Origin: Fistulifera solaris
Taxonomy: Eukaryota
Length of the DNA: 64,000 nt
Reading direction: 5' to 3'
Assembly (NCBI GenBank): GCA_030295235.1
Contig: AP026140.1
Location: 62,001-126,000, forward strand
The notes beneath the pieces were generated by a model that searched no databases, was not told the origin of the DNA, and saw nothing but the letters and a program-made list of their open reading frames with translations. The position numbers and the translations under genes were made by a program. Below, piece after piece: positions 197 through 12,544 of this stretch. The stretch's first letter is position 1. Each line of letters opens with the position of its first letter.

Positions 197-1788
197 ATGA
201 AGTTTGGGCTTCTCTTTCTCGCACCCTTGTTGGTAACAGCGAATCAGTTCTTAGATGACCGTGGTAGAGCTCATGTGTTGCGGGATGAGCCTCGCGTCTT
301 TTGTTCGGCGACGACTGCCATTTCTTTGGTCCATCTAGGTAAAACTCGTTCTCTCTTTCCCTACTGCTCGTTGCCGTTTACTAAGCTAACCGCGTTGGTG
401 ATTATTTCGTAAACTACAGGGATGCCCACCGATTGGCTGGTGGCTACTTGGGGTTCACCTTTCAATCGCTTTTCCAATCTAGCCAAGGGCGAGAAATCTG
501 AGTACTTCACCATGGATATACAGCCCGACGATCTTGCAATCTTGCAGTCGAAACCTTCCGTCTCGAATCCAGATTGTCTGGACGGAACTCAGCCGGAGAA
601 TTTGTGTGATGAGATGGATGAAGCGAAGGTCAAAGCTCTTCAAGGAGTAACACTTATCATCGACGTTGTGGAAAACATTGGATCGGATCCCTTCCCTCTC
701 AACGCTTCTGTAGCATTGAATGTGCCCGTCGTAACCATCGATTCATCTTTTGATGGTGCTCTTAACTGTCTTCCGGATGCGGTGAACTACCTCGGTACCG
801 TTGACCAGAATTGTTACAAAAGATCCTACCTGGATGTCGTCAACCGTATTTATGATATGGCTGAATGGATGGGTATCGATACCCGTCACGATCGTGACTT
901 ACTTTGCAAAGCCACACAAAGATTTCAACAAGCAGCTAAACAGGCTCATGACAAAGGTATTCGGTTCTTGCTAGCTTCTATTCAGAATCAAGAATTTGAG
1001 GAAGGAAACATGCGCATGTATGTAACGAACCCTTGCATTTCAGTACAGCACGGACCATGGAAGAAATCGGTTTGCCCATCTTGTGGCCTGGTCTCTGCCA
1101 AGAAGAGATTTGCAAGTCGTTAGGAGAACTCCCTGCGGCGTATGAGCTTGTTCCGGCGAAGTTCTACTTCCCAGACTGCCCCGACGGTCAAATCGAAGCA
1201 AGCTGCGGCAAGAACACTTTGTATAAAGCGGACTTCTTGTTGCTAGAAGGATTCGGCTACCAGCAACTCGAAGACGACCCGGAAGCGTTCACGAATTTGT
1301 TTCCAGACCCAGCGCTTCTTGCCGGCCAATATATTGCCTTTCCTTTTGACGCGCATGTCTTCTCGCATCGCTCTCTTGCTGGCTGGTTGGAGGTTCTCAC
1401 CGAACGTATCCAGAAAGCCAAGCGTATTCACGAAGCCACTCCTTGTTCAGAAGCGCATGTAACCTCTCTACCACACCTCAACTACAAAGATGCGGAGCTT
1501 GGTGGTGGCGAGTACGCCTGCTGGAATCCTCAGTATCACAATTCTGAGTATGCCACTTGTCCTCCTGAAGAAGTAACCGAGGGTCTCTCGAATGGTGCAG
1601 TCGCGGGCGTGGCAGTTGGCGCCATTTTTGTTGGGGCCTTTCTCATGTTTGTTCTCATGAGATTCGTGTTGAATTATAGAACTGGCATCGACAAGAAGTT
1701 TCAAGAGGCTGAGGAAGAAGAAAAGGAGCTCGAGTCAAACACAAGCCAGGCGTCGCATGTGAATGATGCAGCTTGGAGGAGTGAATGA
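197..1788 (+). CDS. Membrane-anchored periplasmic-binding-protein-like protein (ferrichrome/siderophore-binding FBP1-like)
   Basis: ATG 197 gives a signal peptide MKFGLLFLAPLLVTA followed by FLDDRG..PRV, the typical N-terminus of Fe-siderophore/B12 solute-binding proteins. Intron 339-419 (GT..AG) joins to ORF 422. A 1-nt loss in the CCC at about 1031 joins to ORF 1033-1788. C-terminal TM helix GAVAGVAVGAIFVGAFLMFVL. Confidence 0.7.
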
Positions 1789-1969
1789 GCAAGTGTTTGT
1801 CCGGAGTATTCTTTGTGTATTATTTGTTTTCTTTCGATGTCGTTCTAAGTAACTAAGCAATAACGTTTTCAAGATGTGATTTATTATTAGTTGATATTGT
1901 AGAATGTTGATTCCATGAACATAGTTATGATAGTGTGATTGTCAGTGCCGATGATTTGCAAAAATGCAC

Positions 1970-2449
1970 TTACAATCTCATTCCATCCGCCATAATAGAC
2001 GTCATATATTTAAAAACACGAGTCCAGTTTTCAGCATCTTCCGTTGTGAAGTCAGCTCCCATAATTGTTTCGACTGCGTAAATAGTAGCTCGACCCATCG
2101 AGGAAAGATCTTCCGGCTTGGCGCCGTAGGAAATGTGTCGCTGACCAAGATCCTTGAGAAAGTCCTCCAAGGAATCCAAATTCGGCCCAAGAAACTGAAC
2201 GACACAGTCCACCATATCCACAATCACAGGCGCATGAGTCTTGAATGATAAGTGTTCCTTGATATTTTCGACGCCTTCCATATCGAAGATCGCTGCGGCG
2301 CGAGGATTCAATTGAAAGAGTCGCTCAAAGATGAGTTCGCCTAATCGATCGACGTAGTCCTTATCTTTCAGCTTCACCTGGTCCCATGTACTCGATACAT
2401 TCATGGCGATGGTGTAGTCAATGCTTTCGATACGAGTAGCCGTTGTCAT
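1970..2449 (-). CDS. Single-domain 3/3 globin (about 159 aa)
   Basis: Globin pattern: A-helix W (STWDQV), IFERLFQLNP..AIF, distal KTH, proximal LGQRH, H-helix AENW. The likely start is the ATG at 2449. Confidence 0.9.
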   Translation of the reverse strand: MTTATRIESIDYTIAMNVSSTWDQVKLKDKDYVDRLGELIFERLFQLNPRAAAIFDMEGVENIKEHLSFKTHAPVIVDMVDCVVQFLGPNLDSLEDFLKDLGQRHISYGAKPEDLSSMGRATIYAVETIMGADFTTEDAENWTRVFKYMTSIMADGMRL

Positions 2450-3532
2450 GGTGTCCTTAAATGTTGAACAAAGGGTTTGAAGGAGCTGAAAGAAAAAATA
2501 ATGAAAAGAAAGTGCGGCGTAGAGGTGCAAAGACCCTTTCGGCCCAAAAATTTGGCTGGCTGAGACCAAGATGCAAAATTGAATCTTGGATATTTCGGAA
2601 AAATTTACAGTTTTCTCTATAGTCTGGATTCTACGATACTGCCCCTCCACTATGTAAACGGACATTCACGTTCAGATTTAGTTCTTCCGTGCTCCGTTTG
2701 GCGGTCATGCGACATTTCATGCTACAAAAATGTCTATTGTAAATCGGATGATCTTCGCAATGACCCCGGCATCAGTAGTAAATTGGATTGATTGTTTGCC
2801 ATGGACCTATCCGCTATCCCGAACTCCGCTAAAAAATGGTACAATAAAGTAGAGTAACCTCATGACATGTGACATGATAAACATCTGCGGATGCCTACGG
2901 CGAAAACAGCAGGCAACAGCAGGCGGGTCAAAAAAGCAATTGCCCCTACAGTGGTGTAAAGTGTACTATTCCCAAATATTTTATTCACAATAACGGAGAT
3001 AAGACACTTCGTGCTGACGGCTTAAGGGCTATAGCGAACCTTGGATGTCTTTGTCTTGGGCCTTTCCGGATGCAGGAGGGAAAGTTGATATGCCCACACC
3101 AAAACTTTAGCAACCAAGAACCAAAAGGAACTTCTTTGCGTTTCTCGTTTCTTTCAAGCTTAGTAACTGCAAGCGTTGCTTAATCTTCGCAACTCTCAAC
3201 CGCAATTATCAAACGGTCTATGATAGACAATAATAGAGAAGAGAGACTGCAGGAGGTCTGTTTCTCACTTGCCGCTGCTTGCTTAGCTGGTCTGGCAGAA
3301 TGTTTTTATTTTAAAAATTTCAATCCGAGGGCTACCTTTTTCTTTCGAGAATCAACTGAGCAGAATACAATGTTCTAGTGAATCTATTTACAGTACGCCT
3401 ACATAAATTCATTGTCACAGTATGAATCGCTCATTGGGACTAGGGAGGCTTCCTGCAGAAGGAATCTCTACGATTGGTCGTAAACCAACAAGAGCCAAGT
3501 CTTTGGGTCAAGCCTTTCTTATGATTCAATCA

Positions 3533-4234
3533 TTAAAGGCTAGCCACGAAAGAAAGCAGGAAGAAGCATCCTGTCGCTGCTTTCACATAGAGCCCCTTCA
3601 CACTCGAAGTAGTCGTTGTTTCTCCTTCATGGGAATGATCATCGCAAACCAGTTGACTTTCCGTCGCCGTGGCGGAATTACAGACATGCATGGTGCAAAT
3701 GGATTCCATATCATGCAAACCTTCTTCGGCAGCTGTTGTCAAGGACTCATGGGGACAGTTGTCGTGAACTGCTACGAGAGTTAGAAAGTTGGTGCCACAC
3801 GCCTCGGAAGAGCAGTCGGTCAAACACCCGGCATCCAACATGGCACTGTAGGCGGTATCACCGCTTCCGTCATCACAGACAGGAATAGGACAGTCAGGAG
3901 CTCCTTCGGTTGCGGCGCGTTGGATCTCACAGGCTACGCAAACGGTGTCAAAGTCATGGAAGCCATCCTCAATTTCGGTCGGGACTTCACCCTCTTGACA
4001 ATAGTCGTGATGCGCCTGAACGATATAGTAATTCATAGTGCAGTCCTCGGTGCTGCAATCCGTAGCACAAGAAGATGTTTGCAACGCATTGAAAGCTGTC
4101 AGCATAGCCGCCGTATCCGTACAATCAATGGCAAACCCCAAATGCTCCGCTTCACAGGCGCAACTCTCGGCCGAAAGCACCGCAGAAAACTGAGAACTCA
4201 GAAGAAGGAAGATTGAAGCAGAAATAAACATCAT
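3533..4234 (-). CDS. Secreted, probably GPI-anchored Cys/His-rich double-repeat protein (putative metal-binding)
   Basis: Signal peptide from ATG 4234. Two internal repeats C-x2-DC-x4-C...(H/V)HD-x-C...G-x-HD...C-x2/4-C, then DDHSHE, a Thr/Ser spacer and a hydrophobic C-terminal tail. Confidence 0.8.
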   Translation of the reverse strand: MMFISASIFLLLSSQFSAVLSAESCACEAEHLGFAIDCTDTAAMLTAFNALQTSSCATDCSTEDCTMNYYIVQAHHDYCQEGEVPTEIEDGFHDFDTVCVACEIQRAATEGAPDCPIPVCDDGSGDTAYSAMLDAGCLTDCSSEACGTNFLTLVAVHDNCPHESLTTAAEEGLHDMESICTMHVCNSATATESQLVCDDHSHEGETTTTSSVKGLYVKAATGCFFLLSFVASL

Positions 4235-4484
4235 GGTAGCACAGTTGAATCGTCTTGGTAAAGCGGTAAAAGGTATAAATGAGTCGAAAGATATGATCGA
4301 ATGAATAATCGATGCGAAAATTTGGCGTGCCTTCGTGCATCGTTTTGAGCCTAAACAGGCCATAATAATAGCCTGGATCCAAACTTTCGCAAGATCAAAC
4401 TTCATAGTCTAGAATGCAATGTTGCAAGTCCGCCTCTCTACGAAGTGTTTTCGATAGAGTAGGCAAGGCTATTTCGAGACTTGA

Positions 4485-4493
4485 GACACGTGT
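4485..4493. promoter_or_regulatory. ACACGTGT palindrome (CACGTGTC on the minus strand) in a bidirectional promoter
   Basis: Lies about 250 bp from both divergent ATGs (4234 and 4736). Matches the CACGTG(T/C)C-type element known from diatom low-iron promoters. Confidence 0.45.
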
Positions 4494-4735
4494 GCTGTGG
4501 CCTAAACAAAACACTCACTAAAGGCCGCTTAACTCCCTTTCACTCCAACACTTCTTTATGGTCACCGTCGTCTCCCTCGATCTTTTGAAAAAAAGCCAAA
4601 TAGCTTTACCTGAGCCACAAAAAGGTTGTAAGAGCTTCTCATTATCAGTGACTCTACCGGTTGATTGATTTTCTATCCAGTCGATTGTTTTCAAGTGCTC
4701 CCTCTCGCTCACTTTTTTTTTATAAACAACAAATT

Positions 4736-6595
4736 ATGACTAGCAGCAGCAGCATCACCACAATTTGCTTTTGTTCCTTGTGTGCTCTGGCTGTCTCGTC
4801 TACCGTACAGGAACAACTGCCAACAACGCCACTTTCCCGTAGCTTGCAAGTTAAGAGCACGTTTGTCAATTTGTATGAAACGGTCACTACCGTTGACGCC
4901 TCCGTCGACAAGGACATTCGCGCCATTTTCTCAAAAACCAACTTGGGAACACAGGAGGCATTTGAAGAAGCCCGAACTCTGTATTCACAAGGAGCTTATG
5001 CTGGATCGTATGCGACGCTGCAGATTGACGCTTCCAGTTTGACAAAGGATCTAGTTGCTGGGACTGCAATCCAAGGAGTCTCGAGCAATCGTCCCAATCA
5101 GCCTGCGATGGGGTATGTCAAGGAAACTGCTCCAGCTGGGAGTACATCCATAACAGTACGGTACACGACGGATTGTTACGTCGGTGGACTCGGTACACCC
5201 ATCGTCGATCATTGTAAGCATACTATTGCAACATGCTTTTTGCTCGTGTGTGGATCCACCTGCCTCACGAAACACTGTTTCTCCTTTCGTTGCTATGAAT
5301 CAGGTCTCAAAGAATCGACTGGCGATCAAACATTTCAAATGGGCGAAAATGGTCAAGAACTAGCATACACGTACAGTCCGTTACAAGATACAAAAAATGC
5401 TTTGACCTTAGAGCTCCTGGGCCAAGGCAATTCATCGTCGCCCACCTACTCTGCGTTCTTTGATTACAGCGGGGCGTATGACTATGCCAACCAAGTTATG
5501 ATGGCGGCATTTCAAGGTTCCACAACAACGTTTCCGAATCAGCACACGAACATGGACTTTTCGAAGTTGGACCACGAAGGTCGAGCCGGTGAGTAATTTA
5601 TGTCCGACTTTTAGTTGCCGATCCTCAAGCTCACACGCTTTGTCGTCAATTGTAAATTCACAGCTGCCATTCGCTGGGGAATGGTTGGTATGAATATACA
5701 TTCGCATGTGCTGGAGAAATTACATCAAGCCACGGCGTCTTGCAAAGAGAACGAAAATGCCATTCATTACTGGGACGAGGCAGTCGGCTTCTATACGGGT
5801 TCCATTACCGATTTTCCTGGCGAAGAAGGATACCTTCTCTTTACTGTTGCTGAAATGGAATGCTCTTATTTTGGGACATGCAGTGAAGGCAGTATGGCTC
5901 GTGTGAATGAAGCAATCTTTGTGGCATTTCTCGAAGGCAAAGATATGTTGCAGAAGAAGCAATGTAACGAAGTCATCGAAGTTTCCCGGCAAATCAAATC
6001 GATGATGATGATTCCTCTCGTTCAACGCATCCTTCGTCATGCGTATGAACTGGATCTGCAAGAAAATCAACAAGCCAAAACTCAAGGTGACGCCGCTGCC
6101 TTCATGGCATCTTTGGCACCACATCTGTACAGCTGTCAACGATCGTCAGCACACATGTTGTGGAATGATCTCGCGCCGGGAAACGCCACAAAAGCAAGTT
6201 TCGAAGTTCTCAAATTCACTTTGGAGCGCACGTACGACTGTTTGGGTATCTCTTGTGAGGATGTTGGCGGTTTGTTGCACATTGATCCGACTGGCAGTGG
6301 ACTTTTGTACAATAAAGGCGCCGAGCCCTGTAATTACGTTCCGCCGGCAGCTGAATCACTGAATAAGACGGCAAGTACTACCCGTGCAGAAGAGAATGGT
6401 GATGACAGGAATCAAACCGCATCGACGATCGTCTTTGTGGCGCTAGGATTTTTAGTTGCTGCAATTCTCGCTGCGTTGGTTCGATATCGCTCGAAAAAGC
6501 CGACGAAAGTGTTGGCAATGGAACAAACAGCCGATGTGGCATCAAATGATAAGGAAGATGCGACCGTGGCGGTCGAAGTTGGAGAAATAGCTTGA
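4736..6595 (+). CDS. ISIP2a/phytotransferrin/FEA1-family low-iron-inducible surface protein, divergent paralog
   Basis: Signal peptide and family motifs A..LY.QG, WDEAVGFYTGS, C..FGTC, IPLVQ.ILR.AY and Y.CLGISCEDVGGL, with a C-terminal TM helix. Introns 5214-5303 and 5589-5663 restore one reading frame. Confidence 0.85.
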
Positions 6596-10006: not shown

Positions 10007-10600
10007 TCTGGAAACGGCGTTTTTCAACAAACATCGTTTCTGAGTAAATTCCAGAAAATCTGGAAAGCGCGATCTCCTCATACAGAAATTCTGTTTTGGT
10101 CCAGAAATTTGGACCATGTGTTTTTATCTCACAGAAATTATGTGAACCTCAATTACCATTGGACCTCGTTGTTATAGATCATACAGTGCTTCCCCGCTAT
10201 TTCCAGCAAATCTGGAAACGGCGTTTTTCTACGAACATCGTTCCTGGGTAAATTCCAGAATTTCTGGAGAGCGCGATCTCCTTATACAGAAATTCTGTTT
10301 TGGTCCAGAAATTTTGCACAAGGGACCAGGGACCAGGGACCAGGTGTTTTCATCTCACAGAAATTATGTGCACCTCAATTCGTTTATTTATTGCCTTGCC
10401 TCAATTACCATTGGACCTCGTTGTTCTAGATCATACAGTGCTTCCCCGCTATTTCCAGCAAATCTGGAAATGGCGTTTTTCAACAAACATCGTTTCTGAG
10501 TACATTCCAGAAAATCTGGAAAGCGCGATCTCCTCATACAGAATCCTGTATATGCCCAGAAATTTTGCACCAGGGACCAGGTGTTTTCATTCACAGAAAT
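10007..10600. repeat. Tandem repeat of about 2.6 copies of a 204-bp unit (CCAGAA/TTCTGG family)
   Basis: TCTGGAAA(C/T)GGCGTTTTTC recurs at 10007, 10211 and 10463. Copy 2 carries (GGGACCA)n and a CCTCAATT-flanked insertion. Confidence 0.9.
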
Positions 10601-10891
10601 GTATTTTCGTTTTTCGTTCGTTGAACTCTTTGGTCATCGCTGGAAACTTGGCTGAAATCTGAAATAGTCAGAATCCCGTAAGAAAACGTGTTCCACGTTC
10701 CACGTTATTCCTTCGGATTTCGTATGTTCGGAGTACAAAATCGATTTCAATCGTGTGTGGCCCGCACGTTTCACATCATTTCACTTCCCATTCAAGCGAC
10801 AAAGCAAAATTCATTATTCACTTTTCCATCCGAAGCACTCTCGCTCGACTAAAGATAAAAATATAATTCTACCTCCCAATATTCATTTATC

Positions 10892-11521
10892 ATGGACGAC
10901 GTCTTGTCCAGCACACTCCATCTCTCTTATCTTGCCCCGAGAAGTGGCGCACCTCACATGCTTCTTCTGTGGATTGCGTGGGGGTCACTTATTATTTCGT
11001 GGACAATTGCTTGCATACGCGGGCCTTACACGAAGCTGGACGAGCGCTATACCGAGATCGAAAACAGACTCATTACAAAACGAGCTATGTCGCCACCGGA
11101 ATATCAAGACCAGCGGCAAAGCAAAGAGCATCGAGAATGTGCAATTTGTCAAAGTGCTTTTCAAGAAAATGATCTAGTCAGCTGGTTACCAGGGTGCTGT
11201 CACGTACATCATCACATGTGCATAAAGCGCTGGTTGCTCCAACATTTTAATTGCCCTACTTGTCGGCTTTCTCTTGACGAGTGTGAAGCGGTGTTATCAA
11301 CATCAGGCGGTCCAGATTACTTCTGTATTTATGATGGTTTGCGGCATGTATCACATGAAATTGAAGACGGCCGTACTTGTCGCATTTCATCCGAAGAGCT
11401 CAAACAATATCGCGATTATCCGATTGCTTTATCGGATAAAGGCATGGACCAGGAGGATCCCTGGGGTAATGCCGAACTATTACGATCATACGGGAGGCAC
11501 ATGCGTTTGCCGCCCGTTTGA
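10892..11521 (+). CDS. TM + RING-H2 E3 ubiquitin ligase (ATL-like)
   Basis: CAIC...CCHVHHHMCI..W....NCPTCR RING-H2 domain preceded by a TM helix. Confidence 0.85.
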   Translation: MDDVLSSTLHLSYLAPRSGAPHMLLLWIAWGSLIISWTIACIRGPYTKLDERYTEIENRLITKRAMSPPEYQDQRQSKEHRECAICQSAFQENDLVSWLPGCCHVHHHMCIKRWLLQHFNCPTCRLSLDECEAVLSTSGGPDYFCIYDGLRHVSHEIEDGRTCRISSEELKQYRDYPIALSDKGMDQEDPWGNAELLRSYGRHMRLPPV

Positions 11522-11930
11522 GGAAGGGCTTGATACTTGCATTTGATTGACATTCATAAGGATATAGAATATACCATTATTCGTTTGATTTGGTGTTTCT
11601 AAATGTGGTCAGAGGTTAAAGGCTCGAGGCCATTATTTATTTTAACGCAGAAATGTAGCACAAAAGAACATGGTTCTCTGTTCTCTGTCACATCGGTTTA
11701 TCGTTTATCGGTTTACTACTTTGTAAAATAGAAACAAAGAACAGAAAGAACCGCACGCGAAAAATAATACGGAGTAATGAGAACCTTGATGAGAACACGG
11801 GTGTTGACGACCCCCTCCTTTTGCATTTGCTAACCATTGAAAAGATAAAATAGCATTGCAGGTCGCCATCGTAGATATCAACATTCATTTTAAACTAAAC
11901 TTCTTTGAAACGAGAAGTCTTATTCGAAAC

Positions 11931-12544
11931 ATGGATGATGTTGCGACGTCTCGTCCCGGTAATTCTACCGACTCGACGACAACAAGCGACGACAGTGAAG
12001 CAGCTTTGTTCTTCTTTTTGGCTTGATCGTGATATGGACGTTTATCATTGTTTTGTCCTTTTGCGCTGCCCGTTGCGGCTATCTGCAGTCATCCCAGGAA
12101 AGTGAACAGAACTGTCAGGCAATCGACGATCAGATTATTACCAAGCGAGCCGTCTCATTCGCGTTCACTTCCGAAGATGTGGAGGCAGGATGTGAAGCCA
12201 TCAAAGATACCCCAGAATGTACAATTTGCTTAAATTCATTTGAGGAACATGATATTGTCAGCTGGTCACAGAATCAAGCCTGTCGACACGTCTTTCATCA
12301 TACTTGCATAATACCGTGGTTGGCGAAAGATCCGCAATGCCCTTGTTGTCGTCAACCTTTCTTGGGCAATTCGTCGAATCGAGCCGCTACGACATTTTTC
12401 TCAGTTCATATGGGATTGGTTGATACTTGTAAGGCCACACCAGAGCAGAAAGATGCCTATCAAAAGCTTCTCGAATCGAGTGAGCTAATACGATGCAAGT
12501 CTAACACTCGACTGGGTAAGTTCGCCGAGAAGAATGGAGAGTGA
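11931..12544 (+). CDS. TM + RING-H2 E3 ubiquitin ligase, tandem paralog
   Basis: CTIC...CRHVFHHTCI.PW...QCPCCR. Starts MDDV like its neighbour if one T is added to the T-run at about 12015. Shares the ITKRA motif. Confidence 0.8.

Follow-up and report, generated by a model that had tools for sequence, protein, structure and literature searches.

A conserved head-to-head gene pair in the diatom Fistulifera solaris as a candidate surface-anchored system for zinc or cobalt scavenging

Four consecutive genes lie near the left end of a 64,000-nucleotide stretch of the pennate diatom Fistulifera solaris, on strands + - - + between positions 197 and 6595, and an initial annotation had read them as one co-regulated cell-surface module for metal uptake. 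The stretch, called the window below, is positions 62001-126000 of contig C19 in assembly G000, and the four genes encode, in order, an FBP1-like protein (gene 1), a globin (gene 2), an unnamed Cys- and His-rich surface protein (gene 3) and a relative of the phytotransferrin ISIP2a (gene 4). The question raised by this locus is which of these genes belong together and what metal they would handle. All four genes are real and were found where they had been annotated, and the family assignments given to genes 1, 2 and 4 hold. The conserved unit is genes 3 and 4, not the four genes, and we lean slightly towards reading this unit as a candidate co-regulated, surface-anchored pair that would scavenge zinc or cobalt.

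Linkage to gene 3 was followed in 39 metagenome loci, probably from diatoms, fetched around its relatives. Two loci without a gene 3 match were dropped, and clustering of the others at 90% DNA identity sorted these 37 into 23 groups, 12 of which have flanks too short to show or exclude a partner. In 13 of the 37 loci, gene 3 has a gene-4-type gene as its head-to-head neighbour, across spacers of 170-932 bp; these loci make up eight of the 11 informative groups, with gene 3 identities of 41-60% and GC contents of 0.37-0.54. The other neighbours of the pair vary between groups, and in one locus (L067) a His-rich ZIP transporter gene directly follows gene 3 (PF02535, E 2e-27). Neither gene 1 nor the globin had any match in the 39 loci (tblastn, E 1e-3), including five pair-bearing groups whose sequence extends 2 kb or more towards the side that both genes occupy in the window. 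The metal-uptake module proposed at the outset is supported for genes 3 and 4, which share a conserved head-to-head linkage and a promoter motif, and not for four co-regulated genes: as related loci contain neither gene 1 nor the globin and the promoters of these two lack the motif, we regard them as neighbours in this lineage only.

Judged by its sequence, gene 4 is a member of the Fea1/ISIP2a family. It matches a relative, P0080, at E 8e-37, and its top match in the Atlas (0.93) is a cluster in which 34% of the members carry Fea1; a second relative, P0079, matches Fea1 (PF07692) at E 2e-4, short of the cut-off, and the exons of gene 4 itself gave no Fea1 match in Pfam. A search of the PDB with the family profile found no match, and a fold search with the relative P0069 returned helical bundles at best (Z 6.0), which shows neither a new nor a known fold. 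The introns (5214-5303 and 5589-5663) were placed from GT-AG signals and reading frame, and a donor at 5580 fits as well. Compared with phytotransferrin (ISIP2a/pTF, Phatr3_J54465), gene 4 has the family sequence, a hydrophobic N-terminus read as a signal peptide, one C-terminal transmembrane (TM) segment from residue 509, a short tail and a similar length; it differs in standing head-to-head with gene 3 behind a GGCY-rich promoter, and in its ligands.

The published ligand set of the Phaeodactylum phytotransferrin comprises Asp48, Tyr71, Tyr214 and His294, plus the carbonate-binding Arg183 (bioRxiv 10.1101/806539). We carried this numbering over to gene 4 by residue spacing; the Asp-Tyr and Arg-Tyr spacings in P0080 (23 and 31) and the Tyr-His spacing in the C23 gene (80, by eye) all agree with the published numbers. 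The Arg183 position holds Arg in C23_a, C24_a and P0080 and Leu in both gene 4 and its counterpart on contig C20, and these two copies have Ser at the Tyr214 position. Gene 4 is thus a family member that lacks two of the five ligands expected of a working phytotransferrin, which weakens an iron reading of the locus. Arg183 is replaced on C19 and C20 and in all seven linked groups where it can be aligned, and His294 is replaced in all six linked groups where it can be aligned; Asp48 and Tyr71 are retained in every linked copy where they can be aligned. In an unrooted tree, where the branch of L063 is long, all nine linked gene-4-type proteins and six relatives of unknown context fall on one side of a 95/92 branch, apart from the ligand-complete copy of C23/C24.

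That copy is the first of three tandem phytotransferrin-family genes at C23:379300-385900 and C24:363600-370300, and only this first gene has all five ligands; two to three CACGTG words lie upstream of it. Long proteins with repeated, distantly phytotransferrin-like domains are also encoded at C29:705589-710500, C28:161041-166917 and C46:355364-357643.

The partner of gene 4 has 19 Cys and 10 His, is hydrophobic at both ends and lacks a cytosolic tail. Among the 68 relatives of gene 3 that we found, those with names are all from diatoms (Proboscia, Thalassiosira, Odontella, Cyclotella and Cyclostephanos), and the Atlas search also returned an unnamed cluster that is mostly green algal (score 0.92); no Pfam family matched gene 3. 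In an alignment of 46 sequences, 22 positions never vary (14 Cys, 3 His, 2 Asp, 2 Pro and 1 Gly), with H76, D77, H93, H157 and D158 kept in 46/46 and H75, E89, D90, D94, E170 and H174 in 45/46. The protein is built of two internal repeats (21/54 residues identical, E 4e-14), and every repeat carries the motifs H-D-x-C and E-x-G-x-H-D. The AlphaFold2 model is helical, with a mean pLDDT of 80.6, and a fold search with it gave no clear solved match (best Z 4.9), which again shows neither a new nor a known fold. These features suggest a fold stabilized by disulfides between its Cys residues, and the His/Asp/Glu clusters may bind a divalent metal. A soft, His-rich ligand set such as this one suits divalent ions, and His/Asp sites are promiscuous in the metals they accept.

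The proteins pTF.CatCh1, ISIP2b and pTF.ap1 are likewise anchored and rich in Cys, with clustered genes and a link to metal uptake, but gene 3 was unlike their alignment rows when compared by eye with the first part of each supplementary alignment, and CatCh1 homologs conserve no His, Asp or Glu, whereas gene 3 does (PMC7972479). On these comparisons, an identity of gene 3 with CatCh1 or pTF.ap1 was dropped. Relatives of gene 3 are often tandem copies with His/Asp-rich linkers, and some are fused to a second unnamed domain. This domain, of about 140 residues, stands before or after the repeats (L050:5548-5967, L058:10499-11959, L051:11530-11877 and L072:808-1176); it had no Pfam match and was absent from G000 by a single-query search.

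The evidence for a metal comes from the spacer between the two genes, a candidate bidirectional promoter. It contains eight GGCY/RGCC sites (4348, 4358, 4370, 4467, 4499, 4523, 4594 and 4613) and a single CACGTG at 4487, about 250 bp from both start codons, and the C20 copy keeps the CACGTG and GGCY sites. Spacers of the pair are rich in AGCC/GGCY words, and a weight matrix made from the eight metagenome spacers alone found eight sites in 400 bp of the window's spacer, whereas 147 promoters of G000 taken as background have 0.9 on average and never more than 5. We also scored gene families by their best 400-bp GGCY count within up to 800 bp upstream, with start codons set by hand and with homeologs, which are not independent, included; seven promoters were excluded, five with no fixed start codon (L136, L113, L096, L007 and L008) and two shorter than 400 bp (L140 and L142). 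The zinc families were picked from a study in which a CobW-type protein (ZCRP-A) and a solute-binding protein (ZCRP-B) were Zn/Co-induced (PMC9010474), and COG0523 and SBP_bac_5 were scored as whole families that contain ZCRP-A and ZCRP-B, not as established orthologs. All five SBP_bac_5 promoters, from three homeolog groups, have at least 7 sites (8, 11, 12, 9 and 7), and four of the nine COG0523 promoters have at least 8 (8, 8, 8, 10, 3, 4, 3, 6 and 7), while at least 7 sites were found in 5/145 background promoters and at least 8 in 3/145. Ten iron-family promoters (phytotransferrin, flavodoxin, FBP1 and DUF305, which we take to be ISIP3) have 0-4 sites, all ten at most 4, the iron label being family knowledge and not data from F. 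solaris. The pair spacer scores 8, and the promoters of gene 1 and the globin score 4 and 3, at background level, and lack CACGTG. Because the motif of the spacer is common to the ZCRP-A and ZCRP-B families, zinc or cobalt would be the best candidates for the metal. We relied on the plain core and the matrix and discarded a stricter paired-site motif, which had been defined post hoc and read on minus-strand loci that were not reversed.

Other occurrences of these promoter words were seen along the way. On both homeologs (C1:591898-594888 and C2:567198-570180), an SBP_bac_5 gene of the ZCRP-B family and a ferric reductase gene are arranged head-to-head, a layout like that of FBP1-FRE2, and the promoters of the SBP_bac_5 gene have the highest GGCY counts found, 11 and 12. 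Two DUF305 (ISIP3-like) genes with a His-rich insert lie on opposite strands at C30:562616-565692 and C31:555887-558984, and their plus-strand copies, with 4-5 GGCY sites, are possibly a zinc-linked paralog. The pair spacers of L070, L074 and L085 contain one or two GAATCT words, and two of the three have few GGCY sites, possibly reflecting another regulator in that lineage.

Taken together, genes 3 and 4 would be an old head-to-head pair with one short promoter switched on by scarcity of Zn (or Co). The gene 3 product would be tethered outside the cell, where the His/Asp/Glu pockets of its helical fold, held together by disulfides, would trap ions of divalent metals, and the gene 4 product would be a membrane-anchored phytotransferrin paralog whose ferric-carbonate site is gone. 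Its most likely role would be that of a receptor or carrier, holding the metal at the surface or internalising it by endocytosis and so feeding ZIP-type transport. Of this picture, the linkage, the replaced ligands, the conserved residues and the motif counts are direct observations, while transcription of the two genes together, the identity of the metal, its binding and a hand-over from one protein to the other are inferred. A complex prediction for gene 3 with P0069, a gene 4 relative from another organism, scored 0.00 with alignments not used, and is no evidence either way. The proposed working principle has a precedent in ZCRP-B, thought to be a membrane-tethered extracellular protein that concentrates Zn for ZIP transporters (PMC9010474), and ZCRP-family genes in G000 carry the motif of our spacer; genes 3 and 4 differ in having no SBP_bac_5 or CobW domain in Pfam and in coming as a pair, and their link to zinc is a promoter-motif proxy. 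More tentatively, and with less conviction than we have for the pair, we propose a widespread diatom zinc-capture module that would combine a phytotransferrin branch without ferric-carbonate binding and a new helical His/Asp metal-binding fold. Both would be controlled by a GGCY element present in several copies, which would act on ZCRP-A/B and a His-rich ZIP as well.

The setting of the pair is summarized in Table 1. Contig C20 is homeologous to C19 and repeats its genes with a DNA identity of about 80%, as in an allodiploid, and the named proteins nearest to genes 3 and 4 (86% and 91% identical) have F. solaris as their source label. The annotated secretion and C-terminal anchoring of genes 1, 3 and 4 agree with their hydropathy, each being hydrophobic at both ends; signal peptides and the GPI-like end were judged from hydropathy alone. 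The globin, gene 3 and some stretches of gene 1 are covered by contigs of runs X3 and X4, which come from one study and are RNA by our guess, and gene 4 is covered thinly and in X3 contigs only, contig presence being unable to rank genes by expression. At the 5′ end of gene 3 these RNA-like contigs stop in a plus-strand A run (4296-4305), which could be an antisense transcript or a library artefact. Further into the window there is a duplicated low-GC segment (10146-10662), followed by two tandem RING-H2 genes (10859-12544).

Table 1. Coordinates of the four genes and of the spacer, in window positions.
Feature	Position	Strand	Details
Gene 1, FBP1/DesE-family siderophore-binding-like protein	197..1788; exons 197-338 / 420-1788, intron 339-419	+	503 aa, C-terminal TM
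Gene 2, single-domain globin	1970..2449	-	159 aa; Pfam PF00042 E 3e-11
Gene 3, unnamed two-helical-repeat secreted protein, GPI-like anchor	3533..4234	-	233 aa; candidate Zn/Co chelator
Divergent spacer, candidate bidirectional promoter between genes 3 and 4	4235..4735	.	501 bp; GGCY/RGCC sites and one CACGTG
Gene 4, phytotransferrin (ISIP2a/Fea1)-family paralog	4736..6595; exons 4736-5213 / 5304-5588 / 5664-6595	+	564 aa, C-terminal TM

Gene 1 is assigned by profile comparison to the FBP1/DesE family, homologous to the bacterial hydroxamate-siderophore receptors DesE and FhuD. A profile of its family (A2, 48 sequences, headed by the tandem paralog of gene 1) matched DesE (2x4l) at E 4e-12, the sole match among solved structures, and the family includes F. 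cylindrus FRACYDRAFT_233151, labelled as Fe/B12 periplasmic-binding. Single-sequence searches of the PDB gave no match, and neither did a Pfam scan of 40 of the 115 relatives for periplasmic-binding domains. The hydropathy peaks at residues 3 and 442, consistent with a hydrophobic N-terminus and a C-terminal TM segment starting at 442. The reading frame shifts at 1032 in the window sequence, which the initial annotation had not noted; contigs of X1, X2 and X4 (three of four runs, two studies, X1 possibly being the source data of the assembly itself) have an extra T after 1032, and the contig of the fourth run only begins there. Since the T is found in three runs and the equivalent spot is open in the tandem paralog, which starts at C19:59445 just outside the left end of the window, gene 1 is intact at its full length. 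The frameshift is an assembly error, with one base missing after 1032, and this base in three runs of two studies rules out a programmed frameshift or a pseudogene.

The tandem paralog is identical to gene 1 at 371/452 residues (82%), and several further FBP1-like genes exist elsewhere in G000. Beside this second FBP1-like gene, the region left of the window encodes a metallo-beta-lactamase-fold protein and a CBM6 glycosidase. A ferric reductase, which the initial annotation had suggested looking for on this side, was not seen among the open reading frames (ORFs) across 30 kb upstream of gene 1, and none of the at least 11 PF01794 matches in G000 lies on C19 or C20. Diatom FBP1 is a DesE homolog that can be replaced by DesE, and in Phaeodactylum it forms a head-to-head metal-uptake pair with the reductase FRE2 (PMC6876252). 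This is the family of gene 1; here, in contrast, the FBP1-like genes are a tandem duplicate, the contig has no ferric reductase, and the head-to-head pair consists of other genes. Four relatives of the family (P0127, P0148, P0155 and P0197) have a C-terminal Hint (self-processing) domain. The homeologous stretch C20:58700-64500 has a single FBP1-like copy with many stops, adjoining a copia-like retroelement, and several other genes on C20 are frameshifted, which may be due to assembly errors.

Gene 2 has a Globin domain at 44.3 bits (Pfam cut-off 22, E 3e-11) and no hydrophobic segment, hence neither signal nor anchor. It is identical to its C20 homeolog at 151/159 residues and belongs to a large family in this genome, with 22 matches in G000.

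Several observations weigh against a zinc or cobalt pair. In three informative groups gene 3 has no partner: L058/59, whose contig-name prefix is the same as that of pair-bearing L050, L076/77 (38% identical, GC 0.58) and L083. The motif has a core of just 4 bases and was first noticed on visual inspection of the same spacers, among them that of the window, and the count of 8 in the pair spacer is matched by 3/145 background promoters. GGCY is not enriched in three of the eight metagenome spacers (L067, L070 and L074), and about half of the held-out gene 3 promoters are without enrichment (11, 7, 4, 4, 3, 2, 2 and 2). Only two of nine ZIP promoters reach at least 8 sites (9, 8, 3, 3, 4, 3, 6, 7 and 4), and two ISIP3-like promoters scored 5 and 4. 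As to the ligands, gene 4 retains the Asp48, Tyr71 and His294 positions, and Arg183 is also missing from an unlinked paralog, C23_c, which lacks His294 as well. To these is added the spacer CACGTG of both homeologs, which is close to the iron motif ACACGTGC (PMC3491386).

This last point, with the CACGTG copies before the ligand-complete phytotransferrin, the phytotransferrin ancestry and persistent Asp48 and Tyr71 of gene 4, and the FBP1-family genes next door, would suit a conserved iron-starvation pair. Gene 4 would then be a carbonate-free iron binder or a co-receptor for true phytotransferrin, and gene 3 an accessory like the proteins of the Phaeodactylum chromosome 20 cluster. We consider this unlikely, as CACGTG occurs in 0/8 metagenome spacers, none of the ten iron-family promoters has a GGCY cluster, and the ligands of gene 3 suit divalent ions by general metal chemistry. 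All four genes might instead be one co-regulated module in this lineage, as initially annotated: a role in iron uptake is known for FBP1 as well as ISIP2a (PMC6876252, PMC7966952), the gene order is preserved on C20 and RNA-like contigs of one study lie over three of the genes. Such a module is improbable in the face of the loci without gene 1 and the globin, the background-level promoters of these two genes, the missing ferric reductase and the many stops in the C20 copy of gene 1 in this assembly, and two Phaeodactylum globins have been found to follow nitrate (PMC6779911).

Among divalent metals, zinc and cobalt have competitors. SBP_bac_5 proteins are similar to NikA, a nickel receptor (PMC9010474), one SBP_bac_5 gene is paired with a ferric reductase gene, and the promiscuity of His/Asp sites is general knowledge, so that the pair might handle Ni, Cd, Cu or Mn, or detoxify excess metal, with GGCY marking that regulon. 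We give this little credence, since a motif common to both ZCRP families and one His-rich ZIP pair fits Zn/Co best. Least probable of all would be a conserved surface complex unrelated to metals, in adhesion or the cell wall, with motif enrichment by chance or as a general promoter feature; no fold or domain match points to a function and the motif is short, but all five SBP_bac_5 promoters have at least 7 sites, against 5/145 background promoters, and the invariant residues of gene 3 are of metal-ligand types.

No literature was found on the gene pair, on the family of gene 3, on the branch without Arg183 or on the motif, most subscription papers lying outside the search, and a search for a diatom Zn promoter element likewise found none. 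The genes themselves belong to, or would work like, known systems of surface metal capture. Two Zn-stress proteins only are established in diatoms (PMC9010474).

Zinc may limit diatom growth, and a zinc or cobalt pair, if true, would give two new surface components and a testable cis-element leading to a regulator and its regulon. An iron receptor family would then have been turned to the use of a different metal. On the more tentative reading of a widespread module, no cis-element of a zinc regulon in diatoms would precede GGCY. Surveys by profile HMM have covered ISIP2a (PMC7966952), which serves as a biomarker of iron stress (10.1101/2023.11.05.565706). Such counts could be confounded by family members that lack the carbonate Arg, and, if the widespread module is real, some of the 'ISIP2a' iron-stress signals in ocean surveys would report zinc stress.

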